Positions 12,856 to 42,335 of a stretch of DNA of 64,000 bases are shown in pieces; the stretch's first letter is position 1, and every line of letters starts with the position of its first letter. The translations under genes and the position numbers were made by a program. The notes beneath the pieces were generated by a model that saw only the letters and a program-made list of their open reading frames with translations, searched no databases and was not told where the DNA came from. The stretch comes from a virus, in IMG/VR virus record IMGVR_UViG_3300030450_002944, positions 1 to 64,000 of that record; one strand, written 5' to 3'.

Positions 12856-13149
12856 ATGAAAGTAAGAGAATTAGTAGGAGAATTGTGGAAACTTGATCCT
12901 GAAGCCGAAATAGGTTTCGCATTAACCTTACCACAAAGCGAGTGGGATAAAAATCGTAATAATCCAATTACAGACGATTTGGATATTACATTAGAAGATT
13001 GGATACACATAGATCGAAACTATACCGAACTCGAAGATGACTACTTTGCTTTGATGAGATTTAGAGTAGACGAAAGTCAAATTGATATGCTACCTACTTT
13101 TCAAGACGAGGGAAGAATGAATATAGATTATAGAAAATTAATGAATTAG
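12856..13149 (+). CDS. early hypothetical protein
   Basis: MKVRELVGELWKLDPEAEI N-terminus is common in small phage proteins. Confidence 0.6.
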   Translation: MKVRELVGELWKLDPEAEIGFALTLPQSEWDKNRNNPITDDLDITLEDWIHIDRNYTELEDDYFALMRFRVDESQIDMLPTFQDEGRMNIDYRKLMN

Positions 13150-13212
13150 GGTATTGACTTACCTCTTTCAAATATGTTATAATCGTAGTATAGTAAATAC
13201 AAAAGGAGTATT

Positions 13213-13542
13213 ATGCAAAACGAAAGTGTAGAAACACTAAACAATGAAATAGAAACTAGATTAATACAGATAGGTAGCGAACTAGCAGAATTTAGAGGAA
13301 TGAAAGCAGACTTAGAAAGGGCTATCAAGAAAATGAGTAGTCAAATAATTGAGATGTTAGATACTCTTGCTATTACTACTTATGAAGATGATGAGGTTAA
13401 GATATCTAAACAAGATGTAAGTAGGACTGTGATTGATAACAATGTAGCAAAGGTTGTTATCCCTAAGAAGTACCTAAGTCAAATTATGAAAACCACAGAG
13501 TTTTCTAAAGTCTTAGTGAAAGAGAAAGAGGTAGTAGTATAA
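13213..13542 (+). CDS. coiled-coil early protein (possibly Gam/Gp157-like)
   Basis: N-terminal coiled coil followed by a beta region; own promoter. Confidence 0.4.
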   Translation: MQNESVETLNNEIETRLIQIGSELAEFRGMKADLERAIKKMSSQIIEMLDTLAITTYEDDEVKISKQDVSRTVIDNNVAKVVIPKKYLSQIMKTTEFSKVLVKEKEVVV

Positions 13543-13819
13543 TGAGTGGAAGTGATGATTTATATGAAGTTACCATTACAACTTATACTGAAAAAGATTG
13601 GGAGTATGTCTTGGATAAAGTCCAAGAACTCGAAAGAAATGGTTACTTTGATGAACTAAGTATAAATGGAATGACAGTCTTTTCAGATATAGTCTATTAG
13701 TCTGACACCATATAGGTTATTAGAACGCCTGTAAGACGCTTTAAATGGCTTATATGCAGTCTTTTTAGAGGGTATTGACATTCCCTAACCAAATATGTTA
13801 CAATTAATTTAACAATAGA

Positions 13820-14068
13820 ATATAGAAAGTTGTTGGGAACATTTATGAAATCTCGATCAATGGATTAAATGTGAGTGGCAGAACTTTAGGTCGGTAACCT
13901 AGATTGCAGAGGACAAACGAACTGACGAACAAGTGTTTGAGGTCGTGATGAAGTCGTATGCGTTGAGTATAAATAAAGAAGGTGTACGAGAAAGTACAAA
14001 TACTACTCTTAGAGCATCAGAGGAACGAAAAATCCTATTTCCTCTCTCTTACCCAACTACTTCTATAT
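13820..14068 (+). ncRNA. candidate structured RNA 1 (about 250 nt)
   Basis: Follows promoter 13775; 13820-13837 pairs with 14052-14068; several internal hairpins. Confidence 0.6.
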
Positions 14069-14087
14069 CTTATAAAGGAAAAATTAT

Positions 14088-14301
14088 AGTGGAAAAAGAT
14101 CTACCAAAACACAAATATAGAATAGTGGTGGAAAAAACTTTAGAATACCACTTCGATATTCTAAGTGAAGATGTTAAAGATATTCAAAATAAACAACAAA
14201 TAATAAAAATGATTGAACTTGGTAAGTATGAATTACCTAAAACGCAAATAGAACACATTAGAGTAATATCTTGTGATGATAGTCAAGAATTGAGTATATA
14301 A
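14088..14301 (+). CDS. hypothetical protein (probable start at the GTG near 14089, not 13933)
   Basis: AAGGA SD lies just after the RNA 1 stem. Confidence 0.45.
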
Positions 14302-14303
14302 AT

Positions 14304-14642
14304 ATGAACAGAACTGAGTATAAATATTATGGTGTCCCAAACAAATCCGAGATATTAGAAAGTATTTTTGTAGCAAGTGATTGGATCGAAAAAGCCAAAG
14401 AATATAAAATGGTTTGGACTGAAAAATATTGGAATAAAATTAGACATACTATCAATCCTAACGAAACTAAAGTTACAAAGATAGAAGTGTGGAAAGATTT
14501 AGCGAAAAACAAAGAGGATATAATATACGCTATAACTGAAAGTCATAGGTATTGGTCTGATAATGGAGAATATATTTTTAGAATGGGTGGAATACCTAAA
14601 GAAGAATGGTATACATCTATAAAGCAAAATAAGGAGAAATAA
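14304..14642 (+). CDS. early hypothetical protein
   Basis: 112-aa ORF. Confidence 0.55.
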   Translation: MNRTEYKYYGVPNKSEILESIFVASDWIEKAKEYKMVWTEKYWNKIRHTINPNETKVTKIEVWKDLAKNKEDIIYAITESHRYWSDNGEYIFRMGGIPKEEWYTSIKQNKEK

Positions 14643-14806
14643 TGGATAGATATGAATTTGTAGACGAAATAGCACAAATACTAATAGATGAGAATAGTAT
14701 GGATTTGTTTGATATAGTGGTTCAGGGTTTGGACACTTGGTCAACTGCTGACTTACAAAACCTAGCAGAAGAATATTCATTAGTATTGTCTGTTGACAAT
14801 GCTTAA
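14642..14806 (+). CDS. small acidic protein, distant member of paralog family A (not in ORF track)
   Basis: MDRYEFVDEIAQILIDENSMDLFDIVVQGLDTWSTADLQNLAEEY; AAGGAG SD. Confidence 0.55.
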   Translation: MDRYEFVDEIAQILIDENSMDLFDIVVQGLDTWSTADLQNLAEEYSLVLSVDNA

Positions 14807-14850
14807 TTAAATATGTTACACTTTTAAGTAACAACGAATTTGGAGATCAA

Positions 14851-15936
14851 ATGGATAAAACACAATTTAAATTAGCAGAACGAAAACAGTTTAGAGGGGA
14901 TCTATCTAACATGATGAATGTAGTCAATGATTACATCAACATTGATAGACAAGATTTCTTGCAAAGTGCATATACTGAATTTTCTCCTGATGAAGATTGG
15001 CTCAAACACTATGCCAAAAAAGAGGGAGAATTTTGTGCAATAGGTTGGTTAGCAATAGCCAAAGACATTGATCTACCTAGCTTTACTCATAACCTAGAAC
15101 CAACAGGATATGTTTATAAAGGTAAACAGATGCAGAGTAAATATGGAACAGATGAGAATGGCGATATGATTAAAGTCGGCGAAAAAGAAGTAGTTCATGA
15201 AGTACATGAAAGAGCCTGTGAATGTGAATTACATACTCAACAAGATGATGAAGATAGAGAAACTTGGGTAGAAGATGACTACTTAGATTTTGGTGTAACT
15301 TATGCAGATACAGAGCATATACCTGTTCCCGAAGTAGATGATGATATTTCAAACAATACATATAAAGAATACTTTTTAAAATCTACTCTTGATTTAGAGA
15401 GTGTATCTAGCAGAGCATATGTAGATACTAAAAGATTTGTTAAAGACTTACTCTTGAATTATAGAGTACCAAATGCAATCTTAGAAGATATACAGTTGAT
15501 AAATGATAATCCCACTTTTACACGATTACATTCAATGTTGGGAGATTGTGGATCAGACTATGCTTATGATGAGTCATTTGCAGTATCCGAAGATATGTAT
15601 GGTAAAAGAAGTGGGCAATGTATTCACTTATTCACAGAAACTAATCCTGTTAGTTCCTGTATCAATGGATCATCTTATGGCTATCTAAAAGATAAAAAGA
15701 TAGGTAGTTGGAAGAAGAATGTTGTAGACTATTTAAAGAATACTCAAAGTTTTGCTTGGGCAGACGAAACAGAATTTGAGAAAATGATGGATTGTAATTA
15801 TCAAGCAAACGCAGTAAATTCTATTGATATGGTAAAAGCATATCTAAATCTATTATTAACGAATGATGATTATGCAGATTTCTATTTGCGTGGCGAAATG
15901 AGAACAGAACTAGATGATGAGATAAGTGGGACTTGA
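14851..15936 (+). CDS. large acidic early hypothetical protein
   Basis: 361-aa ORF with its own promoter. Confidence 0.7.
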   Translation: MDKTQFKLAERKQFRGDLSNMMNVVNDYINIDRQDFLQSAYTEFSPDEDWLKHYAKKEGEFCAIGWLAIAKDIDLPSFTHNLEPTGYVYKGKQMQSKYGTDENGDMIKVGEKEVVHEVHERACECELHTQQDDEDRETWVEDDYLDFGVTYADTEHIPVPEVDDDISNNTYKEYFLKSTLDLESVSSRAYVDTKRFVKDLLLNYRVPNAILEDIQLINDNPTFTRLHSMLGDCGSDYAYDESFAVSEDMYGKRSGQCIHLFTETNPVSSCINGSSYGYLKDKKIGSWKKNVVDYLKNTQSFAWADETEFEKMMDCNYQANAVNSIDMVKAYLNLLLTNDDYADFYLRGEMRTELDDEISGT

Positions 15937-15989
15937 CATAGGTATTTCATTTATGCTATTATCTAATTAACGAAACTAATTAAGGAGAA

Positions 15990-16610
15990 ATGATTATGCC
16001 AAATTGGTGTGAGAATACATTAGAGATATGGGGAGAAGAAGAACACATGAAAGAGTTTTATGACCTCTTTGGTGGGCAAGACAAGATACAAGAGAACTTT
16101 TGTTTTGATATGATTACCACTATGCCCAAAGAATTAGATGGGACACGCAGTCCACAGAAAATCGTACCTCAACATAAACTTGATTTATTTGAGAAATTTA
16201 AAAAAGAGATAGATCTTAATTCAACAGAGTTGGATTACCAAAGTAAAACAATAATGGATAAATCTGATAATAAAGAATTTTCTAAGTTTGAAAGTGTTAA
16301 TGAGATTGTAAAGGATTTCTTTTGGGATCACGATCAAGCAATTACTCTAGAAACATCTGATAGACTTAAATCAGAATATGGATCTGATAATTGGTATGAT
16401 TGGAGAAACAAGCATTGGGGAACTAAGTGGGACATCAATGGAGAGGTTGGAATAAATGACATTCATGATGAGGGTTGTACTTTAAACTTTAATACTGCTT
16501 GGAGTCCACCTCAACCAATCGTATTCAAGTTACAGGATATGTTCCCTGAACTAACTGTATATGGTGGATATATTGGAGAGGGCTATGAGTTCGCAGGAGT
16601 ATTTGAATAA
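15990..16610 (+). CDS. DUF1281/YubB (Api92-like) ferredoxin-fold protein
   Basis: MPNWCEN, WYDWRNKHWGTKWD and FNTAWSPP signature motifs. Confidence 0.8.
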   Translation: MIMPNWCENTLEIWGEEEHMKEFYDLFGGQDKIQENFCFDMITTMPKELDGTRSPQKIVPQHKLDLFEKFKKEIDLNSTELDYQSKTIMDKSDNKEFSKFESVNEIVKDFFWDHDQAITLETSDRLKSEYGSDNWYDWRNKHWGTKWDINGEVGINDIHDEGCTLNFNTAWSPPQPIVFKLQDMFPELTVYGGYIGEGYEFAGVFE

Positions 16611-16741
16611 GACAATGGAGAAGTGGGAAAAAAGAGATAAGAAACGAGATAGTAAAAAACGATTTAAAGATTATAAGAATAATATTAAGTCGATTACTAC
16701 GCTTTGGGATATTACTACAAAACCTAAAAGAAAGAAAGATT

Positions 16742-16990
16742 ATGAAAACGATAGCGAAGAATAGCCACACTTGTACAGAGTGTGGGAATAAAAAGAATAG
16801 CAGACATAATGCAAAACAAATATTCCATATAAAAACAAAGTGTGTTAGAAAGTCAAATTTTGTATTTGATAAAAGACATAAGATACAGGATAGATTTAAC
16901 TGTGTTTATATCTGTAAAGATTGTGGTGGCGAGAAATTATTTTTAGATATGACTAAGAAGAATATGCCAAAGTCAGAAGATGAAGAATAG
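16742..16990 (+). CDS. small zinc-ribbon protein
   Basis: CTEC...CKDC. Confidence 0.5.
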   Translation: MKTIAKNSHTCTECGNKKNSRHNAKQIFHIKTKCVRKSNFVFDKRHKIQDRFNCVYICKDCGGEKLFLDMTKKNMPKSEDEE

Positions 16991-17056
16991 GGTATTGACA
17001 TAGCCTATTCCAATATGATATAGTAAAGGTAACAACAGAAACGAAAGTATAGAACA

Positions 17057-17554
17057 ATGACTTTTAATAAAGCAAAAAACAAGTCAACAATTTGGCACAA
17101 CGAGGGACATCAATTAAGTGATTGGGCAAAGTCTGATTATAATTTAACTGTGACTCATAACAATTATGCAATTACAGATAATGGCAATCCTACAACTATT
17201 GAGGGTTTAGAAGAAGAATATAACCGAGTTGGTTGGCAGTCTTGTAATGAATGTTCTTATGATCCAAATGAACCATTTATTGAATGGAGATTGGTATCTG
17301 ATGACTATGATGAAGATGAACCTGATGATAGTGCATGGAACTTAGAAACTGTTGGTCATATCGGAATAATCTTTCCTATGCAAAGAACATTTCCAATCGA
17401 GGAATTTAGTTGTTTAAGTGGTGGTGGAAAAGTATGTTATTTATGCTTAGATACAATTACTTACAAATGGGCAGTTGATGAGGGTTGTCCACATATTCAA
17501 ATTAAAGAAAATGGTAAATGGGTAACTCAATACGATAGCAGTTTTTTTGGTTAG
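17057..17554 (+). CDS. early hypothetical protein with CxxC pairs
   Basis: CNEC...CYLC; own promoter. Confidence 0.6.
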   Translation: MTFNKAKNKSTIWHNEGHQLSDWAKSDYNLTVTHNNYAITDNGNPTTIEGLEEEYNRVGWQSCNECSYDPNEPFIEWRLVSDDYDEDEPDDSAWNLETVGHIGIIFPMQRTFPIEEFSCLSGGGKVCYLCLDTITYKWAVDEGCPHIQIKENGKWVTQYDSSFFG

Positions 17555-17619
17555 GGTATTGACTTAACTATATCAAATATGTTATATTGATTATAACAAC
17601 GAAAACTAAAGGAGAAAAT

Positions 17620-18054
17620 ATGGCTCTAACTTGGGACATAACAAAAGTAGATTTACCGAAAGAGGTAATATATGTAAAGAATGATGAGGGAGAAGAAAAC
17701 CTAAATCCAATTACTTGGTCAATTATTTGGTCAACAATCTTTCTTGGTATGAATGAACTTACCGAGAAGAACCTAAATGATTGGCACAGACGAATGAAAC
17801 AATTAGAAATGTGTGGAATGGGATTGCTTGGAGAAAAAGATAGTGATGTAAAACGTATGCCTAATCTAAGAGAACTCAAATTACACATTGGTTTAAAGAC
17901 AAATGGTTCTTTGATTAAAAAAGGTTCAGCATGGAATAGAGAATTAGTAAGACAAATTAATATGACTACTGATGAGATTGTTAAAAAAGAAAGAACAGAA
18001 TTAGCAGAAGTCGAACAAGTTGTAATAACTGATGATGAGGAAAATGATGAATAA
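17620..18054 (+). CDS. early hypothetical protein (start probably ATG 17620)
   Basis: AAGGAG SD before MALTWD. Confidence 0.65.
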   Translation: MALTWDITKVDLPKEVIYVKNDEGEENLNPITWSIIWSTIFLGMNELTEKNLNDWHRRMKQLEMCGMGLLGEKDSDVKRMPNLRELKLHIGLKTNGSLIKKGSAWNRELVRQINMTTDEIVKKERTELAEVEQVVITDDEENDE

Positions 18055-18265
18055 AGATTTATCAGAAATCAAAGTAGATGATGTAGAATTTACTAACTTA
18101 GATGATGAGATTTACGATAATTTATCGTGGTATTGTGATATGAATTTAGTAGATGAAACACCAAGATTAAAAAATAAGTTCTACGAAGTTAGAAACAAGA
18201 TGATTGATTTTATTGAAAGTGTAAGAGCAGAACAAGTAGAGGGCAAAGATGAAAGTAATTATTGA
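18032..18265 (+). CDS. small acidic early protein
   Basis: Coupled ORF. Confidence 0.55.
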   Translation: MMRKMMNKDLSEIKVDDVEFTNLDDEIYDNLSWYCDMNLVDETPRLKNKFYEVRNKMIDFIESVRAEQVEGKDESNY

Positions 18266-18599
18266 TTTAGAAGAGGATACTATCTACGCAGAAGATGATG
18301 AACAAGTAGAAGAAGAAATAATAATAGAAAATCCTACTGCTGAAAAGATTAAGAAATTAGTAGACTCTGGAATACCTGTTTATTGGTCTAATTGTAATTA
18401 TGAAATTATAAAAGACGAACATACTTACATGATTAAAGCAAAAACAAAAGAAGATGTTAGTCATCTTGAGGGTTATATCTTTACACTTATGGATAGTACA
18501 GGGTTCGACAGAGGTATTCGTTACTTAGACTTAACTGACAGAGCAGACAAATTATTAAATACACATGAGAAATATTTTTATATGAGAGGGCAAAGATGA
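18249..18599 (+). CDS. early hypothetical protein
   Basis: IKKLVDSGIPVYWSNCNYEIIKD motif recurs in phage early genes. Confidence 0.6.
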   Translation: MKVIIDLEEDTIYAEDDEQVEEEIIIENPTAEKIKKLVDSGIPVYWSNCNYEIIKDEHTYMIKAKTKEDVSHLEGYIFTLMDSTGFDRGIRYLDLTDRADKLLNTHEKYFYMRGQR

Positions 18600-18796
18600 A
18601 TAAAGAAAACGAAATGGATTTACATCAAGCGATTGAGATTATTGAAATGGAAGAAAATCCAACAGAAGATGAATATAGATGTGCTTGGCAATTTTTAGTA
18701 GATAAAGGACACGCTTGGAATTTACAAGGTTGGTATGGTAGAACTGCTATGAGTTTAATTGAAAGTGGATTTATACAGGGGAGAATAACAGGATAA
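18596..18796 (+). CDS. conserved small phage early protein
   Basis: AWQFLVDKGHAWNLQGWYGRTA is a widespread family motif of unknown function. Confidence 0.7.
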   Translation: MNKENEMDLHQAIEIIEMEENPTEDEYRCAWQFLVDKGHAWNLQGWYGRTAMSLIESGFIQGRITG

Positions 18797-19083
18797 TGAG
18801 TGAAGAAGAACTAACCATACAGAAACTACATTGGGATAATATTAAAAAAGGTTATCCACATATTGCAGATGATGATGACAATAATGGATATGTCTATGGC
18901 ATTGAATATAGTATAGGTTTGGGAGATACAGATCAACAATGGTTTAAGTCTGAAACAGAGCGAGATAGAATGGTAGAAGAAATGCTTATGGATATTTACC
19001 TAGAGATAGAAGAACCATATCAAGTCAATCCATTCGTAACAAATTTAATACAAGAACAAATGGATAAAGGATTATTAAGATGA
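18796..19083 (+). CDS. early hypothetical protein
   Basis: Coupled ORF. Confidence 0.55.
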   Translation: MSEEELTIQKLHWDNIKKGYPHIADDDDNNGYVYGIEYSIGLGDTDQQWFKSETERDRMVEEMLMDIYLEIEEPYQVNPFVTNLIQEQMDKGLLR

Positions 19084-19292
19084 TAGTAGATGTAAGAAGT
19101 GCTACAAGTGGATATATAGAAATTGGAGATTGGGTAGTTTATGTTGATGATAGTACAGGAGAAAGAATTATAAATTCTTGGGATAAGACTGACATAAGAC
19201 TTAACAATGAGGGGATAAAGTGTGGGGAAATAAAAGAACATACCTCAATGGGTACTAGATTAATAGACTACAAGAAAACAGGTCATGGATAA
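19080..19292 (+). CDS. early hypothetical protein
   Basis: Coupled ORF. Confidence 0.55.
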   Translation: MIVDVRSATSGYIEIGDWVVYVDDSTGERIINSWDKTDIRLNNEGIKCGEIKEHTSMGTRLIDYKKTGHG

Positions 19293-19524
19293 ACTATGTA
19301 GACAATTAAATAATGGTTTAACAATATTAGATGAAAACGAATTATCTGATAAGGATATAAACAACTGTGATAACTGTGGGGAATTAGACTATTATCCTAA
19401 TCTTATATGGGATAGTGATGAACTATGGTGGAGTAGTCAATATCTTTCAGATATGTCTGCTCAAAGTAAACTGAACGCTTTATGTGAAGAATGTTTTGTT
19501 CAATTAAAAGGTAGTAAAAAGTAG
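19285..19524 (+). CDS. small zinc-finger protein
   Basis: CDNC...LCEEC. Confidence 0.55.
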   Translation: MDKLCRQLNNGLTILDENELSDKDINNCDNCGELDYYPNLIWDSDELWWSSQYLSDMSAQSKLNALCEECFVQLKGSKK

Positions 19525-19584
19525 GGTATTGACTTATCTATTTTGATTATGCTATAATGATTATAGAAACTATAAAAGGAATAT

Positions 19585-20025
19585 ATGTTAAAAGATATAG
19601 AAATAAATACTAAAAGTTTAATCACTTTAATACAGGATATCTATGATACATTTGATGCTCTTGAAAAAGATAATGAGAAAGAAAACCTCAAATGGACAAT
19701 AGAGGGAAAATCAAAATCTCAACAAGCATTGATTATGACTTCTTTCTTTGAAGATATACAGAAGAAGAAAGGATTATCTGATCATTTAGTTAAGAGTTTA
19801 CAGAATGATAAATTCAAACTTACTAGAAAAATAGATAAATTGAAGAATGAAATCGCAGTATTGGAACAAGCCTACGATAATATTCAACATAAATATCTAA
19901 GCGTGGGGAGAGGAATAGATAGTACACATAGTGTATTAAAGAGATTAGCATTTGATAATAAACATCAAGTCTTTAAAGATGATATGTTAGTAAAGTTATG
20001 GAAGATTAAATCAGATTGGTATTGA
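19585..20025 (+). CDS. coiled-coil early protein
   Basis: Own promoter; heptad pattern. Confidence 0.6.
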   Translation: MLKDIEINTKSLITLIQDIYDTFDALEKDNEKENLKWTIEGKSKSQQALIMTSFFEDIQKKKGLSDHLVKSLQNDKFKLTRKIDKLKNEIAVLEQAYDNIQHKYLSVGRGIDSTHSVLKRLAFDNKHQVFKDDMLVKLWKIKSDWY

Positions 20026-20209
20026 AATGCGTGGGGAAAGAGAAATAGCCAAAGACTATGACTATAACATAGTATACTGTCAATGTAATAAACCTTTATA
20101 TATAGATGATATAGATGAAGAAAACAACTTGATAGCAATATGTGAAGATACAGATTGTGAGTATTGACTTACCTTTTATCAATATGCTATAATGATTATA
20201 GATAAAAAA

Positions 20210-20310
20210 GTAATTGATTAGAAACAATAAAGATACGAATGATTGAGTGTTGAGCAATGTATAGTTCATTACTAATCAACTCAACTGATCGCTAGTCGCT
20301 AATCAATTAC
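20210..20310 (+). ncRNA. candidate structured RNA 2 (about 100 nt, rod-like)
   Basis: Follows promoter 20164; perfect 12-bp GTAATTGATTAG/CTAATCAATTAC closing stem; inner TTGAGTGTTGA/TCAACTCAA stem. Confidence 0.6.
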
Positions 20311-20507
20311 ACTAATAAATAAGAGGTAAAAGACTATGAAAATGAGTAGAGGTTTAATGGAAATTAGTATAGATGAATTTCTTGCAGATAGAAAACCATG
20401 CGAATTACTATCAGAGTTTGGATTAGAACATAAACATACAACTGATTGTGATTTAATTGATGAAATAGTATATCAAGCGTATCTGTTAGGGGAGAGGAAT
20501 AGATAGT

Positions 20508-20801
20508 ATGAAAAAATATAGAGTAATATGCAATGAGGGAACAACATTTCTTTCAAGAACATGGAAGAATGGGGAAACAGAAGAAGAAATATATGAAATT
20601 TTTGAAGATTTCTATGAAACAGAGAATATGGGATTTGATGAAGAAATAGATGACTATATCCCAATGCCAAGAGAGTTAGATTATATTAGGGATCTATGGA
20701 ATGTAACCATAGAAGAAATAGAAGATCCTAATTACTCTGATGAAATAGGGGATTTATCTGAATGGGAATATAATAGTGGTAAAGTATCTTTATATAGATA
20801 G
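20508..20801 (+). CDS. very acidic small protein
   Basis: High E/D content. Confidence 0.6.
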   Translation: MKKYRVICNEGTTFLSRTWKNGETEEEIYEIFEDFYETENMGFDEEIDDYIPMPRELDYIRDLWNVTIEEIEDPNYSDEIGDLSEWEYNSGKVSLYR

Positions 20802-20915
20802 GGTATTGACTTACCTATATACGATATGCTATAATAGATATATAAGGTAAATAAAGATCGATATACAGAAATAGAGTAATAAATATATAGTAAATAAAAG
20901 GTAGGTATTGAATAT

Positions 20916-21404
20916 ATGGCTAAAACTAAGTTAAGAAAGCGAAAGCAATCTAATGGTACTTATAACCTAGAATATGACCCAATTCCAATGGATAGGGTAC
21001 GAAAACAGGGAATTGAGTACATAAAAGCAACAGAATTGGTTAATGGAACTATCTTTGAGGGTAGGAAGATACCAAGTAGAATAGTATGCTTTTATAATAT
21101 AAAAGACCAAGAGATATCTTGGAAGTATAATGAGGGGAAAGCAGAGGAAGTATGTAATGGGAATACAGACTATTGTTATCTAGTTAGAGATGATATGTTC
21201 TGTCCTAATGGATACTATCTATGTCTACCTCATAATCATATAGTGGATTGGAGAGTATCAGGATTGGATTATCACTTTCTCTCCCCACAGGAATTTGAAG
21301 AAGATGAGAAAATGACTATGGAAGAATATGGGAAAATACAGGAAAAAGACCATATTACTTCGTATGAGAATATGAAAGATAAATTTGATTATTTAAGTAA
21401 ATAA
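20916..21404 (+). CDS. early hypothetical protein
   Basis: 162-aa ORF with its own promoter and terminator. Confidence 0.65.
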   Translation: MAKTKLRKRKQSNGTYNLEYDPIPMDRVRKQGIEYIKATELVNGTIFEGRKIPSRIVCFYNIKDQEISWKYNEGKAEEVCNGNTDYCYLVRDDMFCPNGYYLCLPHNHIVDWRVSGLDYHFLSPQEFEEDEKMTMEEYGKIQEKDHITSYENMKDKFDYLSK

Positions 21405-21416
21405 CTTACCTTTTAT

Positions 21417-21452
21417 AAGGGGATAGGTTTTATGGTTTTTCCCTATCCCCTT
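21417..21452 (+). terminator. hairpin abutting the next -35 box
   Basis: AAGGGGATAGG...CCTATCCCCTT. Confidence 0.65.
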
Positions 21453-21489
21453 GACTTAGGTATAGCGAATATGTTATAATAATATTATA

Positions 21490-21593
21490 GGGTATTTAAG
21501 TATGCGAGGGTTGTCAGGGAAATTAGTAGTGAATGAACTGACCACAGAATGTGTTAATCCAACTACCCATACTTAACCACCCCCCCTTTTTTT
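21490..21593 (+). ncRNA. candidate structured RNA 3 (about 100 nt, standalone)
   Basis: Follows promoter 21451 with no ORF; TTAAGTATG/CATACTTAA stem, GTCAG/CTGAC and CAC/GTG hairpins, then a T-run. Confidence 0.6.
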
Positions 21594-21755
21594 CCTAAAG
21601 GAGTTATATGATATATCAGCAGCCACCACCACAGGAGAGGAAATAGGTATATATAAGGAATGGAAAAGGAGAGGAAATGGAGAAGGAAAGGGGTGGGAAA
21701 TGGAAAGGAAGGAAGGGGTCAAATGTCGCATAACTCCCCATGTGGTAGGGGGTAC

Positions 21756-22235
21756 TTAAAAGCACTCCCCTGATTGTTGCAATTCAAATATACTAGGTCC
21801 ACGATCTCTATGACGTATTAAGCTCTTATAGGCTTCTTGCAATCCCCATTCATAATAGAACGATTGACCAAATGACCTTTTGCACCACACAGTTAAACCT
21901 AGCATATCGTCAATTATAATTTCTCCCACTTCTCCGAGCCAATGTGCCAAATGATCAGAGATAAGAAAATATTGCATTACTTCTCCCTGTTTCCATTCAA
22001 TAAGTGCTTCTTTAAACTCTGGCTCTTCCATGTCTGGTAGGTTTTCAGGGTCATATCCCTGTCTAAAATCTTCTATATCTTCTGATGTTATAGCGTTTTC
22101 GGTTGCTATATATAAACTCTCGTAACTGTCGTCTTGCTCAAAGAACCTTTCGGCTACTTCGTTTACAAGATATAGTACGTTCTTATCACACCATTTCTTA
22201 AAGTCTTTATCTTCTGCTAATTTGTCGCTATTCAC
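21756..22235 (-). CDS. conserved phage early protein
   Basis: EVMQYFLISDHLAHWL...GE...GLTVW...GQ family pattern; two tandem promoters upstream. Confidence 0.7.
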   Translation of the reverse strand: MNSDKLAEDKDFKKWCDKNVLYLVNEVAERFFEQDDSYESLYIATENAITSEDIEDFRQGYDPENLPDMEEPEFKEALIEWKQGEVMQYFLISDHLAHWLGEVGEIIIDDMLGLTVWCKRSFGQSFYYEWGLQEAYKSLIRHRDRGPSIFELQQSGECF

Positions 22236-22498
22236 TTTTTACTCCTTTATTAGTTTTTACTTATATATCAATAATAGCATATATAGGGGGGGTAGGTCAA
22301 CCCCTGATATATCCTATAACTCCACCTACTATTATTATATCATATAGGGAAGGGGTCTGTCAAGGGAAAAGGGAAGGAAGGGAAAAGGGAAGGAAGGGGA
22401 TAGGGGGACTGGAGTTATGCGATTATGGGTAGTGGCTCAAAGAGAGAGCCACCACACAATTACGCCAACCACTATTAAGATTTCCAATCAATCCCCTT

Positions 22499-22753
22499 TT
22501 ACCACATAGAGTCAAATGCTTTAACCATGTTAGCCTGTACTTCATACCTAGATGCGTCTACCTGAACGTCTTGACCATCAATTATTACATAATCAATATC
22601 ATGAGCATAGATACTACCAATTTCTGTAGCATAGCCATACACTTTAGCCATTCTGATATTACCTTTTTTGTTGTCCATCATCTCAAACTTCCAACCATTT
22701 TTTTGGTATCCGACTGTCCCTTTTTTTATGTCATTAGGTTCAATAGTTTTCAT
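22499..22753 (-). CDS. conserved small phage early protein
   Basis: NDIKKG...MMDNKKGNIR...EIGSIYAHDI motif. Confidence 0.7.
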   Translation of the reverse strand: MKTIEPNDIKKGTVGYQKNGWKFEMMDNKKGNIRMAKVYGYATEIGSIYAHDIDYVIIDGQDVQVDASRYEVQANMVKAFDSMW

Positions 22754-22808
22754 AGTTCCTTTTTGCTAGTTTTTTCTTTATGTAATAAGTATATCATATT
22801 TGATCACT

Positions 22809-22973
22809 CTATGTCAACTCAATGTTTACAATTTCTTTGTCTGTTAATTTAATATTGTGTTGCTCATAAAAGTTATCTTTTACATTTTGGATAAATTCTT
22901 TTTTGGTTTCTCCATAATTATTTATCGCAAATGATAATTCTATTTCACAGAACCATTCTTTTTCTTCACTCAT
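22809..22973 (-). CDS. small hypothetical protein (54 aa, not in ORF track)
   Basis: AAGGAG SD and own promoter; MSEEKEWFCEIELSF... Confidence 0.6.
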   Translation of the reverse strand: MSEEKEWFCEIELSFAINNYGETKKEFIQNVKDNFYEQHNIKLTDKEIVNIELT

Positions 22974-23054
22974 TTTCGTACTCCTTTATTTAAGTATAGC
23001 ATATTTGATCATTCTATGTCAATAGGGATATATCATATAACTCCAAAAAAAATA

Positions 23055-23371
23055 AATTTAACTAAGCGTGGCGAAGGTGTCAGATTGAATGAAACTCACT
23101 TTCAAACTTAGACTTACGATATCATGATATGATCGTGCTACATCAGGCTACAACTTCGGCTTTCTATCCTAGGCTAGTGGCGGAAGTGATACATCTGGCT
23201 CAACGTCAGGGAACAGAGGGATCTGCAAGATACTCTATTTCTATTCGTTTATCTGAACTTGTACTAAAAGTTCGTTAACAATTAAGTACAACTGATAGTT
23301 TGACAATAACCTTCAAAAGTTTCTGTACAGGTTGCGAACCTATGAGCCTACTTAACCACGCTTATTAAATT
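23055..23371 (-). ncRNA. candidate structured RNA 4 (about 315 nt)
   Basis: No ORF; 16-bp closing stem 23055-23071/23356-23371; long-range GGCTCA/TGAGCC; several hairpins; U-run after the stem on the minus strand. Confidence 0.7.
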
Positions 23372-23376
23372 GTTAA

Positions 23377-23485
23377 ACAAGATTGATGATCGGTTGTTAT
23401 AGACCGAATTTAATCTGTCCACATTCCCTACTTCGTTGTATTGGTAAAATGTTATTCACATTCATCGTTACTTCCTCAACCTTGT
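23377..23485 (-). ncRNA. candidate structured RNA 5 (about 110 nt), co-transcribed upstream of RNA 4
   Basis: Starts at the predicted TSS; ACAAGGUUGA/UCAAUCUUGU stem includes a G-U pair valid only on the minus strand. Confidence 0.65.
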
Positions 23486-23616
23486 AATATAAGTATAGCA
23501 TATTAAAGAGTGGTAATGCAATACCTTGATATATCATATAACTCCTCTTAAAAAAAGAGGGCAGGTGGGGGAAGGGGAAAAATGAAAAAACCCCAAACCC
23601 CTCTTGTACCTACCTA

Positions 23617-23853
23617 TTACATTTCCTCAGCCATTGCCCAAAGGATAGGCTCAACTTCACTAGATATCTGTAAATGGAAGTCGCAACACTTTAACCTGTC
23701 GTTCATTTGATCTTTGGAAAAGATTAGAATATCCTTTATGGAAAAGGCTTTCCTATCTTTACAATCAAACCATTGTCGCCAATACCCTTTATCAGAGTCC
23801 ACTTCATAGTGAACATTCTCGTTTCTATATTTAAAAGTTCCTTTAGCTTTCAT
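23617..23853 (-). CDS. early hypothetical protein
   Basis: SD and downstream G/C hairpin terminator (23551-23612). Confidence 0.6.
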   Translation of the reverse strand: MKAKGTFKYRNENVHYEVDSDKGYWRQWFDCKDRKAFSIKDILIFSKDQMNDRLKCCDFHLQISSEVEPILWAMAEEM

Positions 23854-23854
23854 C

Positions 23855-24046
23855 TTAACCTCTATTCATTTCTATATATTTTTCATTTAGTTCTGTTCTT
23901 ATTACATCGCAATCATCAGAACACACAACATTATTTCCATAACATTCTGTATGATCTTTTTGATAGTTTTTCCACTCTAAAATTTCATCATCTGTTAGAG
24001 TGAAAGACTTAGGGTGTTTATGTGAGTTGCTAATCCAAGATATCAT
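23855..24046 (-). CDS. early hypothetical protein
   Basis: Promoter 24076-24105 and AAGGA SD. Confidence 0.6.
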   Translation of the reverse strand: MISWISNSHKHPKSFTLTDDEILEWKNYQKDHTECYGNNVVCSDDCDVIRTELNEKYIEMNRG

Positions 24047-24092
24047 TTTATTCCTTTACTTGTTTCTATACTTATATTATAGCATATTTAAT

Positions 24093-24191
24093 GTAGGCTT
24101 GTCAAGTGTGTCTTGTTTAGATTTACATATAACGACTTGCAAGAGCTTTCAGGATCAGGGAATACTTACTCAACCCCACTTGACTACCTAC
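24093..24191 (-). ncRNA. candidate structured RNA 6 (about 100 nt)
   Basis: Starts at the predicted TSS of promoter 24199-24228; GUAGG-UA-GUCAAGUG pairs with CACUUGAC-AAG-CCUAC; no ORF. Confidence 0.55.
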
Positions 24192-24250
24192 TAAGTATAT
24201 AATAACATATATGAAGTAGTGAAGTCAATACTGGATATATCATATAACTC

Positions 24251-24309
24251 CCATAAAGAATGTGTCCCATAAAGAATGTGTCCAGTAAAGAATGTGTCCA
24301 GTAAAGAAT
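24251..24309. repeat. 16-bp tandem repeat x3.7 (C(CA/AG)TAAAGAATGTGTC), iteron-like
   Basis: Units start at 24251, 24267, 24283 and 24299. Confidence 0.9.
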
Positions 24310-24379
24310 ACGAGGATTTTTTTCACAAAAAACTTTTCTCCCAAGTCAATGGGCTAGGTGGGCTAGATTTTTAAATCCT

Positions 24380-24517
24380 CTATTGGATGTCGTCTGAAAT
24401 CTTCAGATCAGGAGAGAGGTCATTCCAGTTAAGGATTTCCTCTACTTCTTTATCGGCAGACTCATCATTCCTACCGACACTCATTAGGATTTCATCTATT
24501 AGTTCTCTTAGAGTCAT
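24380..24517 (-). CDS. small acidic protein (45 aa, not in ORF track)
   Basis: GGAGGT SD; MTLRELIDEILMSVGRND... Confidence 0.6.
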   Translation of the reverse strand: MTLRELIDEILMSVGRNDESADKEVEEILNWNDLSPDLKISDDIQ

Positions 24518-24631
24518 AATAGACCTCCACTTTTTTTGGTTTTGTTTTATCGACCTAATATAAGTATAACATATATTCTTTTTACGTCAAACCCCTACCC
24601 CCCATTGATATATCATATAACTCCAAAAAAT

Positions 24632-24672
24632 GAGAGTATAGAAAGAAAAAATGTAAAACTTCCTATACTCTC
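24632..24672 (-). terminator. terminator abutting an 18-bp box
   Basis: GAGAGTATAG...CTATACTCTC with a minus-strand U-run. Confidence 0.7.
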
Positions 24673-24738
24673 TTAATTGTTAATGTTCTTCACATTTAGG
24701 GCAAATAATAGTTGAGCCATTTCTTATACAATCGCAAC

Positions 24739-24966
24739 TCATAAGGGTAATTTTCCAGACTCTTTTTTCTGTTCCCACGTTGCCGACTCTATAGCACCTC
24801 TGAAAATCTGTTCATTAAAGTTTGGGTTATCATCTGCAAATATTTTGCATAATTCTTGGTATAGTATATCAGGGTCTATATATTGAAAACTGCTTGTCGC
24901 AGAGTCAATAAATTTTATACTGTTTTTCCACACGTCCACAAATTTTATGTAATCTTTTTTAGTCAT
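24739..24966 (-). CDS. conserved small phage early protein
   Basis: MTKKDYIK...F.DDNPNF...F family pattern. Confidence 0.7.
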   Translation of the reverse strand: MTKKDYIKFVDVWKNSIKFIDSATSSFQYIDPDILYQELCKIFADDNPNFNEQIFRGAIESATWEQKKESGKLPL

Positions 24967-25069
24967 CTTTTTTTCCTTTTTATTAGTTGATACATTAAGT
25001 ATAGCACATTAAAGATTATTAATGCAATACCCCCACCCCTATTGATATATCCTATAACTCCAGTTGAAA

Positions 25070-25375
25070 TTAAATGAAATCAACTGAATTAGGTTCTTGT
25101 CTAGTTATTAGAACTGAATCTTGTTCAAATTTAGTTTTATATTTTAGGGCAACTTTATTAACCACGTTGATATAATTAATATTATTTTTTTCATGAAGGA
25201 TAGATACAACTTTAGTTTTCTCTTTAGTTCCCTTCCAATAACCTGTAATTTCTGATACTGAAAAACCTTCAACTTCATTAGCAAGTTCAGTATCTAGAAA
25301 ACTATTAAATTGTTTATCTGATACAACTGACTTATTTTTTATATCAGTTCCAAAATATATTAATGTGTTTATCAT
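25070..25375 (-). CDS. DUF3574-like protein, candidate SAM lyase (T3 SAMase-like fold)
   Basis: YFG...VSDKQF..FLD...GFSV....GYWKG..EKTKV...YK..FEQDSVL. Confidence 0.6.
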   Translation of the reverse strand: MINTLIYFGTDIKNKSVVSDKQFNSFLDTELANEVEGFSVSEITGYWKGTKEKTKVVSILHEKNNINYINVVNKVALKYKTKFEQDSVLITRQEPNSVDFI

Positions 25376-25379
25376 TTTA

Positions 25380-25559
25380 TTACCATACCTTCCGTTCTAG
25401 AGTTTGCTTTATTCTTAGTTCATTAATCTTAGCTTTAGTTAATGGTTTAGGTTTAGATCCATTGCCCTTAACAACTGTTATACATTTTCCATTTTTTCCA
25501 ATGGGTACAATCAGTCTTGACTTACTTCTTTTAACTTGTCTTTTACTTGGTATATTCAT
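25380..25559 (-). CDS. small basic protein (59 aa, not in ORF track)
   Basis: MNIPSKRQVKRSKSRL...; follows promoter 25592-25621 and an SD. Confidence 0.55.
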   Translation of the reverse strand: MNIPSKRQVKRSKSRLIVPIGKNGKCITVVKGNGSKPKPLTKAKINELRIKQTLERKVW

Positions 25560-25683
25560 TTTTTTAATCCTTCTTTTTAGTTACTATAATTATTCTATCA
25601 TTTTATTTACTACCATGTCAACCCCTGATATATCATATAACTCCCCCGAAAAATAATAAAAATCGGGGGGAGAGAGTAATTAA

Positions 25684-25911
25684 TTAATCGTCAATGTTTG
25701 GTTGTTCCATTCTTGCGATATGGTTATCCACAATGTACCCTGAATATATTTCATCAGAGAGAATGAAAATCTGTTTCCAGAATAACCCTGATTGAGTATC
25801 AAGAAAATCTTCATCTTCTTTAACACCTGATTTAATAATCGCTAATGCTAAATCGTTGTATCCCTGTGCTATTGCTTGTTCTTTATCTAATCCATTATAA
25901 TCTGTAGCCAT
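25684..25911 (-). CDS. early hypothetical protein
   Basis: Own promoter, AAGGAG SD and terminator 25641-25672. Confidence 0.65.
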   Translation of the reverse strand: MATDYNGLDKEQAIAQGYNDLALAIIKSGVKEDEDFLDTQSGLFWKQIFILSDEIYSGYIVDNHIARMEQPNIDD

Positions 25912-26019
25912 TTTTTAAATCTCCTTTGATTTAATTTATTTATTTATTTAACCTATAATTATTGTCTCATGGATTTGATTTTTTTACAACCCCCATGATA
26001 TATCCTATAACTCCTCTGC

Positions 26020-26244
26020 TTATTCGTACACCTCCCCTAATAAGTCGCCGTCTGCTTCTTGAGGTGTATCAAAATCTACAACCTCATAATTTTCTATGGC
26101 GTGTTTCTGTACTGTAGGTATGCCCTGATCCTCGCAAGCCTGCAACCTTTTTAAAGGCGTTTTGTAGCCGTCATCATCTGCCTGATACGCAGACTCCCAG
26201 TCCCAGTTCTCAGCCCAAAATTTTAAGTTCTCTAAGTTATCCAT
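26020..26244 (-). CDS. small acidic early protein
   Basis: Own promoter and AAGGAG SD. Confidence 0.65.
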   Translation of the reverse strand: MDNLENLKFWAENWDWESAYQADDDGYKTPLKRLQACEDQGIPTVQKHAIENYEVVDFDTPQEADGDLLGEVYE

Positions 26245-26380
26245 TTTTTCTCCTTAACTAAATTTAACTATACCTATAGTATATCACATATTCAAAACTT
26301 GTCAACCCTGTGCCACTCGGCTCAACTAGGGATATATCACATAACTCCACTTCAGCCGAAAAAAAACTGAAGTGAGTATA

Positions 26381-26524
26381 TTAATCGTTCTGAAAATATT
26401 CAATCATAAGTTTAAAGTGTTCCCTATCTAGTTTTTCAACTGGGACATGTTGCAATAATTCCATTAACATATTAACAATAGTATTTAATTTTATATCTAT
26501 TCGTTCTAAGTCTAATTTATCCAT
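26381..26524 (-). CDS. small helical protein (47 aa, not in ORF track)
   Basis: AAGGAG SD; MDKLDLERIDIKLNTIVNML... Confidence 0.6.
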   Translation of the reverse strand: MDKLDLERIDIKLNTIVNMLMELLQHVPVEKLDREHFKLMIEYFQND

Positions 26525-26623
26525 TTTATTATTTCTCCTTTAGTTGTTTATTGTTTTAATTTAATTTTTTATTTATTTTTTATTTCTCCCTTCTACTTAA
26601 TATTACGTGTAATAAAGGGTAAA

Positions 26624-26656
26624 AAACGTCAGAGAAACATCAGAAAAACGTCAGAG
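26624..26656 (-). promoter_or_regulatory. three 11-bp direct repeats (AAACRTCAGAR) in place of a -35 box
   Basis: AAACGTCAGAG-AAACATCAGAA-AAACGTCAGAG upstream of 26381..26524. Confidence 0.6.
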
Positions 26657-26716
26657 TTTTTTATATTCAAAAAACAAACTGAAGTAAGTATATTAAGATT
26701 ATGTATAATAAAATTT

Positions 26717-26947
26717 TCATTTTAAATCTCCTATAATAATTTGAAAATCCATATTCCCAGAGTTCTCATCACCTCCCACAATAGTGATGAAATCCTTTTG
26801 AGAAGGATCATCAATATCAAAATAGTGTGACTCCACCCAGTAGCAGTAACCACACATAACCACTTCATCACCATCTACATCAACCACCAATCCCCAAGAT
26901 GCTATTTGGTTTATTATTAAGTTGCAGAAGTTACATTCTTTATTCAT
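26717..26947 (-). CDS. small zinc-finger protein
   Basis: CNFC...CGYC; AAGGAG SD. Confidence 0.6.
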   Translation of the reverse strand: MNKECNFCNLIINQIASWGLVVDVDGDEVVMCGYCYWVESHYFDIDDPSQKDFITIVGGDENSGNMDFQIIIGDLK

Positions 26948-27124
26948 TTTTTTAAATCTCCTTTATTTGTTTTTTGGGCATAGTATCCCGTATTTATAAT
27001 ATTAGCACATTTGGGGTCAAAAGGAGTTATATGATATATCCCGTACCACTCCCATTTATTTACCTCAGCCGTAAACGAACTGGAGTAAATAAATTAAAAT
27101 GATATATAATAAAATTTTCATCAG

Positions 27125-27325
27125 TTACGCCTTTCTATCTACAATTGTTGCTGAATATTTTCTACTCATTAAAAATAATTTAGAACCATTAGGGCTAGTT
27201 ATTTCCAAATCTCCAAAATCATCATAATCATCTTTATCAACTGACTTTTCTATCGCTTCTTTTTTTGATTTAGCCACAACCGTTTTGTAAGCAATCTGGG
27301 TTTCTTTGATTAAGTATTCTTTCAT
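27125..27325 (-). CDS. small early protein
   Basis: V.AKSKKEAIEK motif; own promoter. Confidence 0.65.
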   Translation of the reverse strand: MKEYLIKETQIAYKTVVAKSKKEAIEKSVDKDDYDDFGDLEITSPNGSKLFLMSRKYSATIVDRKA

Positions 27326-27430
27326 TTTTTTCTCCTTTTGTTATTTAACCTTATATAGATATTTTACAATACCACCCCCCTTATTGCAACCCCTTTGGAG
27401 TTATATGATATATCCTTTGTATTTTTATTA

Positions 27431-27459
27431 TTTACAATGTGGCTTACATGTAATAGAAT
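27431..27459 (+). promoter_or_regulatory. rightward promoter TTTACA-N17-TAGAAT, 16 bp downstream of an 18-bp box
   Basis: Read directly from the sequence. Confidence 0.6.
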
Positions 27460-27500
27460 AATATTAGATTAAATAAATAAGTAAACCGAAAGGCGAAAAA

Positions 27501-27929
27501 ATGACTAAACAAGAAATTAAAGCGTGGGTGAAATTACAAGATAATATCAACATGCAAAAAACATTTGATACTATCACTACTAACTTACGCCCACTAGATA
27601 AAGAAATCCTTAGTAGATTTATTATAGAAAAGGACACTATAAAAAATATTACTGAATGGCTAAATTCAGAATTAGGTCTAAATTTAACTACTTTTAAAAC
27701 TTCCAAAATTATTAAGACAATTCAAAGATACTTAGTAGCTTTATATCATGACACACCACATCATATTAGAGATGCCCGAAAAATGGGAATGTCTGTTACA
27801 AGATTCGTACCTACAACCAATGCTCCCGCTACTCCACATATAATAGTGGAGCAGAAAAAATACATTGGGGACATCTGTATTTCTAGAACTATCAACATCA
27901 AAAGAAGCAAGAGCGGTTATTGGAAGTAA
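27501..27929 (+). CDS. sigma70 region-4-like helix-turn-helix protein, candidate regulator
   Basis: LRPLDKEILSRFIIEKDTIKNITEWL...TSKIIKTIQRYL matches the region-4 pattern by eye. Confidence 0.5.
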   Translation: MTKQEIKAWVKLQDNINMQKTFDTITTNLRPLDKEILSRFIIEKDTIKNITEWLNSELGLNLTTFKTSKIIKTIQRYLVALYHDTPHHIRDARKMGMSVTRFVPTTNAPATPHIIVEQKKYIGDICISRTINIKRSKSGYWK

Positions 27930-27940
27930 TTATTACTTAC

Positions 27941-27975
27941 TCCCCTTGTCAGAATAGATGAGGGGAATTTTCTTT
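27941..27975 (+). terminator. intrinsic terminator
   Basis: TCCCCTTGTC-AGAATA-GATGAGGGGA then a T-rich run. Confidence 0.7.
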
Positions 27976-28358
27976 CCCTTCTCCAATCCTCAGAGATACA
28001 CGCCACTATGACACGCTAAGAAATAGACGATATGATACATTCCCTATCATAAATGTTATTGTTTTGAACTAATAAAAGTTGAGTCGCTCCATATCAAGAA
28101 GCCTGATATAATAACCCCCTATTGTACTATATAACCCCCTTAAGGTTAACCAATAAAGGTAGGGTTAGCTACAGAGAGTACTTTTTTTAAAAATGAATGT
28201 TTCCAAAATGTTACATAGATGAAGGGTGGGGGGTACTAGATTTTGGCGATAGGTATAGGGTCCCATACACTAGGCTAAATTTTTTCAGAAAAAAATCTGA
28301 GAAAAACGGCGTTTCGCTTATGGCTAGGTTGGCGTTAACGCTATTCTTTGCTATTCTA

Positions 28359-28502
28359 TTATACTTGAGCTAAATAGTAAACTACTAATTCCTGTGATGG
28401 CTGATACTTAGGATAGTAGTAGTCGTCTTCTAGATGTAGAATTCTATTTAGACTATACGTTCTAGTATCCTTTGAAAATAGTGAACGAAAAAACTTGGTC
28501 AT
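28359..28502 (-). CDS. small hypothetical protein (47 aa, not in ORF track)
   Basis: AAGGAGG SD and TTGCAA-N18-TATAAT promoter at 28533-28562. Confidence 0.6.
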   Translation of the reverse strand: MTKFFRSLFSKDTRTYSLNRILHLEDDYYYPKYQPSQELVVYYLAQV

Positions 28503-28597
28503 TTAATCCTCCTTTACTAAGTCTTCCTTTATATTATATCATATTTGGGGTAGTAATTGCAAGTCTTTTATTAAATATGTGTTACAAAAAGAAGGGG

Positions 28598-28627
28598 TTG
28601 ACTCGGCTTATTGAAATATGCTATAAT
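28598..28627 (+). promoter_or_regulatory. early-type promoter
   Basis: TTGACT-N18-TATAAT driving a small ORF at 28687..28845. Confidence 0.75.
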
Positions 28628-29529: not shown

Positions 29530-29530
29530 A

Positions 29531-42331: not shown

Positions 42332-42335
42332 AATT

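Follow-up and report, generated by a model that had tools for sequence, protein, structure and literature searches.

Helix-enclosed structured RNAs in the early region of a marine phage: candidate non-coding RNA genes carried like cassettes

phi29 pRNA and 6S RNA (RF00044, RF00013) are early or abundant RNAs with paired 5' and 3' ends that bind a protein machine. RNase III stalks are long-range helices flanking 16S and 23S rRNA, with further sites in T7 early mRNA, and pseudo-ToxI is a phage decoy that mimics a 36-nt antitoxin repeat. The Racr RNA anti-CRISPRs are phage RNA decoys against defence that mimic CRISPR repeats (PMC10651486). Virulent phages are thought to take over cells almost wholly with small proteins; very few non-coding RNAs are known from them and fewer have a function, the stable RNAs of bands C and D of T4 and sRNA1 and sRNA2 of PAK_P3 having none assigned (PMC4933390). 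In T4-type phages, a strong sigma-70-like early promoter and a stem-loop terminator make up the PeSL cassette, a unit that mediates modular shuffling (PMC2839356, PMC4122927). The present analysis concerns the early region of an uncultured marine phage in IMG/VR record IMGVR_UViG_3300030450_002944. The window, that is, the whole stretch of DNA analysed, is the first 64 kb of this 81,307-nt record, which is rated 99% complete. Six domains were studied: d1 (13819-14074, +), d2 (20210-20310, +), d3 (21490-21593, +), d4 (23377-23485, -), d5 (23055-23371, -) and d6 (24093-24191, -).

An earlier note on this DNA had taken the six domains for a single kind of object, RNAs closed by a terminal stem and expressed from strong early promoters. 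They did not prove to be a uniform set, since d3 has neither thermodynamic nor comparative support and d2 is a singleton. What was upheld is that at least three of the six (d1, d4 and d5) are conserved, structured and non-coding and lie behind strong host-type early promoters. The reading that we prefer, although we would put it at a little under even, is that d1, d4 and d5 are genes for new structured non-coding RNAs, that d2 and d6 are leaders and that d3 is unsupported.

Relatives were fetched from IMG/VR with an 18-nt box, GGAGTTATATGATATATC, as probe, yielding G001 (82 kb, complete), G002 and G003 as well as the short marine metagenome contigs L048, L057, L099 and L123; a conserved 361-aa early protein used as a second probe added L160, L161 and L163. 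Five homologs each were found for d1, d4 and d5, one for d6 and none for d2 or d3. The homologs of d1, d4 and d5 are 75-95% identical, and the protein genes of the region are 66-87% identical in DNA. Indels of 1, 2, 5 and 7 nt separate the supported RNAs, with no open reading frame (ORF) common across lineages, and the ORFs of 22-53 codons are lineage-specific with frames broken by indels. Covariation was compensatory in d1 and d5 and of the wobble type in d4. Only these three domains combined conservation, base pairs preserved by substitution and absence of a conserved frame. By comparison of the homologs, d1, d4 and d5 were thus shown to have a predicted terminal helix that covaries, autonomy from their neighbours, no coding capacity and strand specificity.

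The d4-d5 unit consists of RNA only and lies between two minus-strand copies of the 18-nt box, at 23528-23545 upstream and 23027-23044 downstream. Its promoter (23492-23521, -) has TTGCAT in the window and TTGACA in five of five relatives. The 13-bp closing helix of d4 begins at the predicted +1, a spacer of 5 nt separates d4 from d5, and the closing helix of d5 is followed by a T8 run (23045-23052, -), placed where the protein cassettes have the U-run of their terminator. The order box, promoter, d4, spacer, d5, T-run and box was kept in all six contigs, and the genes flanking the unit differ between the window and G001. The length of d4 ranges from 86 to 113 nt; it is 86-91 nt in the relatives, and the window copy carries a 24-nt insertion that is itself a hairpin. 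Four variant cells were found in the d4 stem, all of them exchanges of G-C with G-U or of U-A with U-G on the minus strand.

The larger RNA, d5, is multi-branched and about 317 nt long. Its conservative structure contains nine helices and 57 pairs, six of them compensatory, and slid control alignments gave 0-1. One A-U to G-C change occurred in the closing helix P1, two compensatory changes in the long-range helix P2 (UGAAGGU with ACCUUCG), which stacks under P1, and three in a hairpin with the loop UCGCAA. Invariant G-U pairs make d5 strand-specific. Direct repeats of 18-20 nt, GAGCC[A/U]GAUGUA[U/G]CAC, lie about 65 nt apart in the interior (23148-23215) and flank a variable arm, the stem of which is ACCAU/AUGGU in the G001 group, CUGUU/AACAG in G003 and shortened in the window. 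The same A-to-U change is present in both repeats of G003, which suggests concerted evolution or a common partner. Two helices proposed by RNAalifold for d5 (37-44/150-158 and 27-33/240-246) were rejected because their pairing fails in G003 and is incompatible with covarying helices that have better support. A T-loop in the hairpin loop UUCGCAA was likewise rejected, as U, A or G may occupy the first position and the fifth is a C.

In the window, d1 measures about 255 nt and is predicted to form a multi-branched RNA closed by a helix of about 22 bp. It lies behind a TG-extended promoter of its own (13775-13804, +; TTGACA-18-TACAAT) and ahead of a gene at 14089-14301 (+), which most likely starts with the GTG at 14089 behind AAAGGA. 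A 122-aa ORF called at 13933-14301 was discarded as an artefact; a 2-nt indel in the relatives breaks its upstream frame. The homologs of d1 (in L163, G001, L123, L160 and G003) span the full 75-95% identity over three lineages, namely the window with L163, the G001 group and G003. They share a 38-nt invariant block, differ by indels of 1, 2 and 6 nt and have no common ORF. In the consensus fold of nine helices and 74 pairs, seven pairs changed on both sides yet remained paired: three in the closing helix, three in the hairpin 13881-13899 and one in a further hairpin. The closing helix itself is GUUGUUGGG/CCCAACUAC in the window and GGGUUUUGG/CCAAAACC in the relatives. Six slid alignments gave 0-1 compensatory pairs, and none of 500 shuffles reached seven. 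Five G-U pairs are invariant, and the fold of d1 is therefore specific to the plus strand.

The position of d1 differs between relatives. At the G001 site matching 13776-14108, the upstream terminator is followed directly by the start codon of the downstream gene, and d1 is missing. It is found instead between the homologs of ORFs 17057-17554 and 17587-18054, without the promoter that precedes it in the window; there an A-run and a U7 run make up the closing helix, and a promoter comes immediately after it. In the relatives, the helix and U7 look like a terminator. Hence d1 is a 5' leader behind its own promoter in the window and, with no such promoter in front of it, a 3' trailer of another gene in the relatives, which shows that the same predicted RNA would work in different transcript contexts. 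The sequence GGTATTGACA is present at the junction in both arrangements and points to an exchange at promoter sequences. From their placement, d1, d4 and d5 appear to have been moved around the genome like gene cassettes.

Approximately 21 consensus promoters (TTGACA, 18 nt, TGnTATAAT) were located between about 10.5 and 28.6 kb, facing right as far as 21.5 kb and left between 26.3 and 22.3 kb. In the phage and its relatives, nearly all early promoters are followed after 11-36 nt by a start codon that has a strong Shine-Dalgarno sequence. The promoters before the flagged domains are the exceptions, their long leaders being clear outliers. Those upstream of d1, d2, d3 and d6 are of the sigma-70 type and match the consensus at 10-12 of 12 positions. 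The 18-nt box occurs 12 times within 21600-27414 (0.16 expected) and nowhere else in the 81-kb genome. It usually follows the U-run of a terminator and precedes, by 4-16 nt, a -35 element of like orientation; in some cassettes the terminator stem ends, on its 3' side, with the GGAG of the box. No box accompanies the rightward early promoters. A scan of GTDB genomes with it returned seven single chance matches and no clue to the host.

The terminal stems were confirmed insofar as every one of the six minimum-energy folds brings the two ends of the domain together by pairing, with stems that start about 1-10 nt past the predicted transcription start. Closing helices measured about 22 bp in d1, about 16 in d5, about 15 in d6, 13 in d4, 12 in d2 and about 13 with loops in d3. 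Two domains end in U-runs as described, d5 with its T8 and d3 with a T7 at 21587-21593. A scan for consensus terminators called none of the U-runs after d3, d5 or, in the relatives, d1; in those cases the "hairpin" is the long-range closing helix. To evaluate the strength of the closing stems, the best duplex of each 22-nt 5' anchor with sequence 60-350 nt further downstream was set against the values for 3000 anchors drawn at random from the window. The p values were 0.29 (d1), 0.09 (d2), 0.057 (d3), 0.21 (d4), 0.009 (d5) and 0.0017 (d6). The same test on 16 short-leader promoters gave a median p of about 0.9, so the six domains stand out as a set, and individually only d5 and d6 do.

Whole-domain z scores against dinucleotide shuffles were -2.35 for d1, -3.2 for d2, -0.2 for d3, -2.5 for d4 and -1.8 for both d5 and d6; the thermodynamic support of the six domains is modest. 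The opposite strand folded at least as well as the transcribed one for d2 (z = -4.0) and d3 (z = -0.9); there d4 lost its closure and d6 weakened. The proposal that G-U pairing fits the transcribed strand therefore held for d1, d4, d5 and, mildly, d6, and failed for d2 and d3. The suggestion of separate RNAs did not hold for d2, d6 and the window copy of d1, which are continuous with downstream mRNAs. A comparison of the six interiors found no common sequence, and since nhmmer profiles of d1, d4 and d5 run against all fetched loci detected no distant copies or paralogs, the domains are considered unrelated to each other.

None of the six could be assigned to a described family, as had been stated before. 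The 4227 models of Rfam 15, which include 6S, Y RNA/YrlA, pRNA, ToxI, CRISPR-DR, retron msr, self-cleaving ribozymes, GOLLD/ROOL/HEARO and IMES, gave no match at the gathering score in the whole window. At E <= 10 over 13000-28300, five chance-level matches were obtained, none inside a domain, and neither the CRISPR-repeat, ToxI, 6S, Y-RNA and retron models nor those of hammerhead, twister, pistol, hatchet and HDV ribozymes matched even at this level. Hammerhead-like CUGANGA strings in d1 and d5 were noticed and set aside, as no ribozyme model matched. Pattern scans of IMG/VR for d1 and d5 returned homologs from the same clade only; two extra loci, L164 and L165, proved to be chance matches. 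Within the collections searched, d1, d4 and d5 are, by sequence comparison, probable new families of structured RNA that occur only in this clade of marine phages.

The remaining domains are weaker candidates. The promoter at 20164-20193 (+) precedes d2, which occupies a 136-nt leader of a two-gene cassette beginning with gene 20336-20506 and is closed by a perfect 12-bp inverted repeat. The cassette is absent from G001, and no homolog of d2 was found in the fetched relatives or by the IMG/VR pattern scan. The d3 unit is an ORF-poor stretch of about 100 nt from a promoter (21451-21480, +) to the T7 run; it is the weakest candidate, supported by layout only. Its 24-codon ORF has no Shine-Dalgarno sequence, and no homolog was found in the relatives, where the slot is absent and a minus-strand promoter facing a terminator is found in its place. 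In G001 (L162 9803-10075, -), a consensus promoter fires into the terminator hairpin of a 44-aa Cys-rich gene, and the same back-firing promoter is present in G002, G003, L048 and L123. Such a promoter would give a short antisense RNA.

The 99-nt leader d6 lies between tandem promoters. The upstream promoter (24199-24228, -) reads into d6 and is conserved in L057; the downstream one (24076-24105, -) drives gene 23855-24046, and its -35 is contained in the 3' arm of the d6 closing stem. The single homolog is 82% identical, keeps both promoters and a 40-nt interior block (about 95% identical) and has a closing stem of different composition. No further copies were detected by pattern scan of IMG/VR. 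Just upstream of the box and promoter leading into d6, at 24255-24310 (-), are three tandem units of about 17 nt (GGACACATTCTTTAY...), which are absent from L057. On the preferred reading, d2 and d6 would serve small-gene mRNAs as structured 5' leaders, and d3 would be a short transcript that lacks support.

The possibility was considered that the domains are purely cis-acting punctuation of RNA, that is, RNase III-type stalks, 5' stabilizers or terminators in which the interior only holds the helix or tunes processing. This is a real though less favoured possibility. The continuity of d2, d6 and the window d1 with downstream mRNAs agrees with it, as does the closing helix of d1, which at about 22 bp would be long enough for RNase III if some 20 bp or more of near-continuous double-stranded RNA is required. 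Moreover, in the relatives the d1 helix with its A-tract and U7 resembles a terminator, and the U-runs of d5 and d3 occupy the terminator position of neighbouring protein cassettes. However, a stalk or terminator does not need a 200-300-nt interior with invariant blocks of 20-38 nt and covarying inner helices, most of the closing helices are 12-16 bp and thus short for RNase III, and d4-d5 has no gene to process or stabilize, the next gene having its own promoter. A role in processing, stabilization or termination is, at the same guarded level, the main rival to protein binding in trans. That some of the RNAs are riboswitches or ribozymes of an undescribed class is the least probable alternative. 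Long invariant cores and multi-branched folds would suit it, and so would the P1-like closing helix directly before a U-run in d5 of the window and d1 of the relatives, a layout seen in switches whose aptamer P1 doubles as terminator. Nevertheless, d1 precedes a gene in the window and follows one in the relatives, d5 controls nothing downstream, an arrangement at odds with a riboswitch, and none of the self-cleaving ribozyme models named above matched.

Alternatively, the elements may act as DNA, as protein-binding or recombination sites (operators, iterons, a transcription-activated origin) whose RNA folds are incidental. A region full of an operator-like 18-nt box, the twin direct repeats in d5, the -35 within the d6 arm and the palindromic 12-bp pair of d2, which folds even better on the other strand, would be expected from such sites, and d2 and d6 are where this explanation is most plausible. 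As an account of the locus it is improbable: in d1, d4 and d5 only one of the strands accommodates the variation by wobble pairing, several of the invariant G-U pairs would turn into A-C mismatches if the other strand or a DNA cruciform were the folded form, and the compensatory changes fall in short inner hairpins that lack the palindromic character of protein sites. Chance stems in neutral spacers or decayed genes, in d2, d3 and perhaps d6 or in all six, are unlikely as well, if marginally less so. The z scores of d3 and d6, the lack of any homolog of d2 and d3 wherever searched, and the fact that four of the six closing stems exceed p = 0.05 against random anchors are what chance would produce. 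Conservation with covariation rules it out for d1, d4 and d5; the six long-leader promoters scored far better as a set than the 16 short-leader ones, and the conserved 40-nt interior of d6 is at odds with it.

Several findings also weigh against the preferred reading of d1, d4 and d5 as RNA genes with d2 and d6 as leaders. The closing stems of d1 and d4 are no stronger than those of random anchors, and the fold of d2 is matched by its opposite strand, that of d3 by its shuffles. Only about three independent lineages are represented, and the covariation counts are consequently small. The six single-sequence folds of d5 agree on the closing helix P1 only, and in the relatives 7-17 weakly paired nucleotides part the helix core from the U-run, making termination after d5 uncertain there. 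In addition, no antisense target of any of the six RNAs was detected above chance anywhere in the 81-kb genome. The sequencing runs listed for the phage are all DNA, and d1, d4 and d5 are known from sequence alone.

Should d1, d4 and d5 be RNA genes, the terminal helix would insulate the fold from flanking RNA and leave no single-stranded 5' end for end-dependent RNases, and together with a U-run it could bring about termination and 3' protection. By insulation, end protection and termination, the RNAs may then accumulate from the first minutes of infection. Action in trans by protein binding, as a decoy or sponge for a host factor or as a scaffold for a phage protein, is a tentative suggestion held at less than even odds. 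The earlier note had raised decoys for defence proteins, with RNA anti-CRISPRs and antitoxin mimics as examples, and sponges for host RNA-binding proteins. It is favoured by the long invariant blocks outside helices and by the lack of an antisense target in the phage. The contact surfaces would be the long invariant blocks in loops and junctions, joined in d5 by a pair of equivalent 18-20-nt sites that have changed together. A bolder and rather doubtful proposal is that the phage clade keeps a pool of portable, helix-insulated "RNA genes" shuffled by the promoter/terminator cassettes of orphan proteins, and that at least d4-d5 and d1 would act in trans as decoys or scaffolds, trapping a protein of host defence or RNA metabolism within the first minutes of infection. 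The neighbouring proteins are ORFans, and the "host-takeover" label given to them by the earlier note is for this reason an assumption.

The phage has a GC content of about 32-35% in the window and encodes an SU10-type capsid protein and a Phage_tube_2 tail tube. It was found in at least 20 marine metagenome runs from 15 studies. No cultured-phage record matched the region in either near or distant DNA mode, a search with the tail-tube protein yielded only remote matches to haloarchaeal viruses, and no tRNA gene was found anywhere in the 81-kb genome. Directly after the portal gene (G000 73902-77291; L169 9902-13291) is encoded a 1129-aa protein that joins a class II nucleotidyltransferase head (PolyA_pol and RNA-binding domain; CCA-adding/poly(A) polymerase family) to a type IB topoisomerase core. 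As the genome has no tRNA gene, the helix-closed RNAs are one speculative candidate for the RNA substrate of this protein.

Other features of the window were also noted. On the minus strand, at 21640-21740 and 22365-22420, lie two tracts of CCUUCC-type repeats that are rich in C and U and correspondingly rich in purines when read on the plus strand. Each adjoins one arm of the inverted pair GCATAACTCC/GGAGTTATGC, which brackets gene 21756-22235 and its tandem promoters, and G001 carries an equivalent tract of about 130 nt. These tracts may resemble an anti-Shine-Dalgarno sequence or mimic 16S rRNA. A stretch of about 750 nt (27930-28690), which separates the leftward early array from the rightward genes, has no convincing gene; it contains a canonical terminator (27941-27966) and two consensus promoters that diverge, at 28562 (-) and 28598 (+). 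The 1231-aa protein encoded at 29510-33205 has a PAP2 domain (phosphatidic acid phosphatase type) close to the N-terminus, and the rest of its chain is long, charged and of low complexity. The gap at 42325-42625 gave z = +0.8 and no structured RNA.

The region offers three conserved structured RNAs that have clear boundaries and native promoters of the sigma-70 consensus, and the phage that carries them is widespread in marine metagenomes; a laboratory bacterium could express the cassettes as they stand, for a search for their binding partners. The closing helix, found on the same RNA as leader, trailer or stand-alone unit, is a design rule for spotting RNA cargo in phages. If the pool of RNA genes is real, RNA would be a regular currency of host takeover in lytic marine phages.

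PeSL cassettes, the T4 and PAK_P3 RNAs and the Racr RNAs each bear a resemblance to this locus, and none is a membership. Like phi29 pRNA and 6S RNA, the domains are predicted to have 5' and 3' ends that pair; they differ in having multi-branched folds and no model match, and the phage is not phi29-like. As in RNase III stalks, a helix of two flanks would enclose a structured RNA in a longer transcript, the d1 helix being about 22 bp; most helices here are 12-16 bp, and d4, starting at +1, needs no 5' processing. As with Racr and pseudo-ToxI, small RNAs produced early by the phage could titrate a host protein; no CRISPR-repeat or ToxI model matched here, and the twin repeats of d5 are shorter than CRISPR repeats. 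The T4 and PAK_P3 RNAs are phage-encoded, non-coding, strongly transcribed and without assigned function, as the present RNAs would be. They are about 100 nt long, late-expressed or tRNA-linked and were seen experimentally, whereas d1, d4 and d5 are RNAs of 90-320 nt predicted from sequence only, in the early region of a phage that has no tRNA genes. By architecture, and with no sequence relation to the T4-type PeSLs, the units can be regarded as PeSL-type mobile cassettes: promoter/terminator units are repeated among small orphan genes, the cargo varies between close relatives and the exchange points lie at the promoter, as do the d1 junctions at GGTATTGACA. The window phage is unrelated, with its SU10-type capsid and genome of about 81 kb, its units carry the extra 18-nt box, and their cargo here is structured RNA rather than ORFan proteins.

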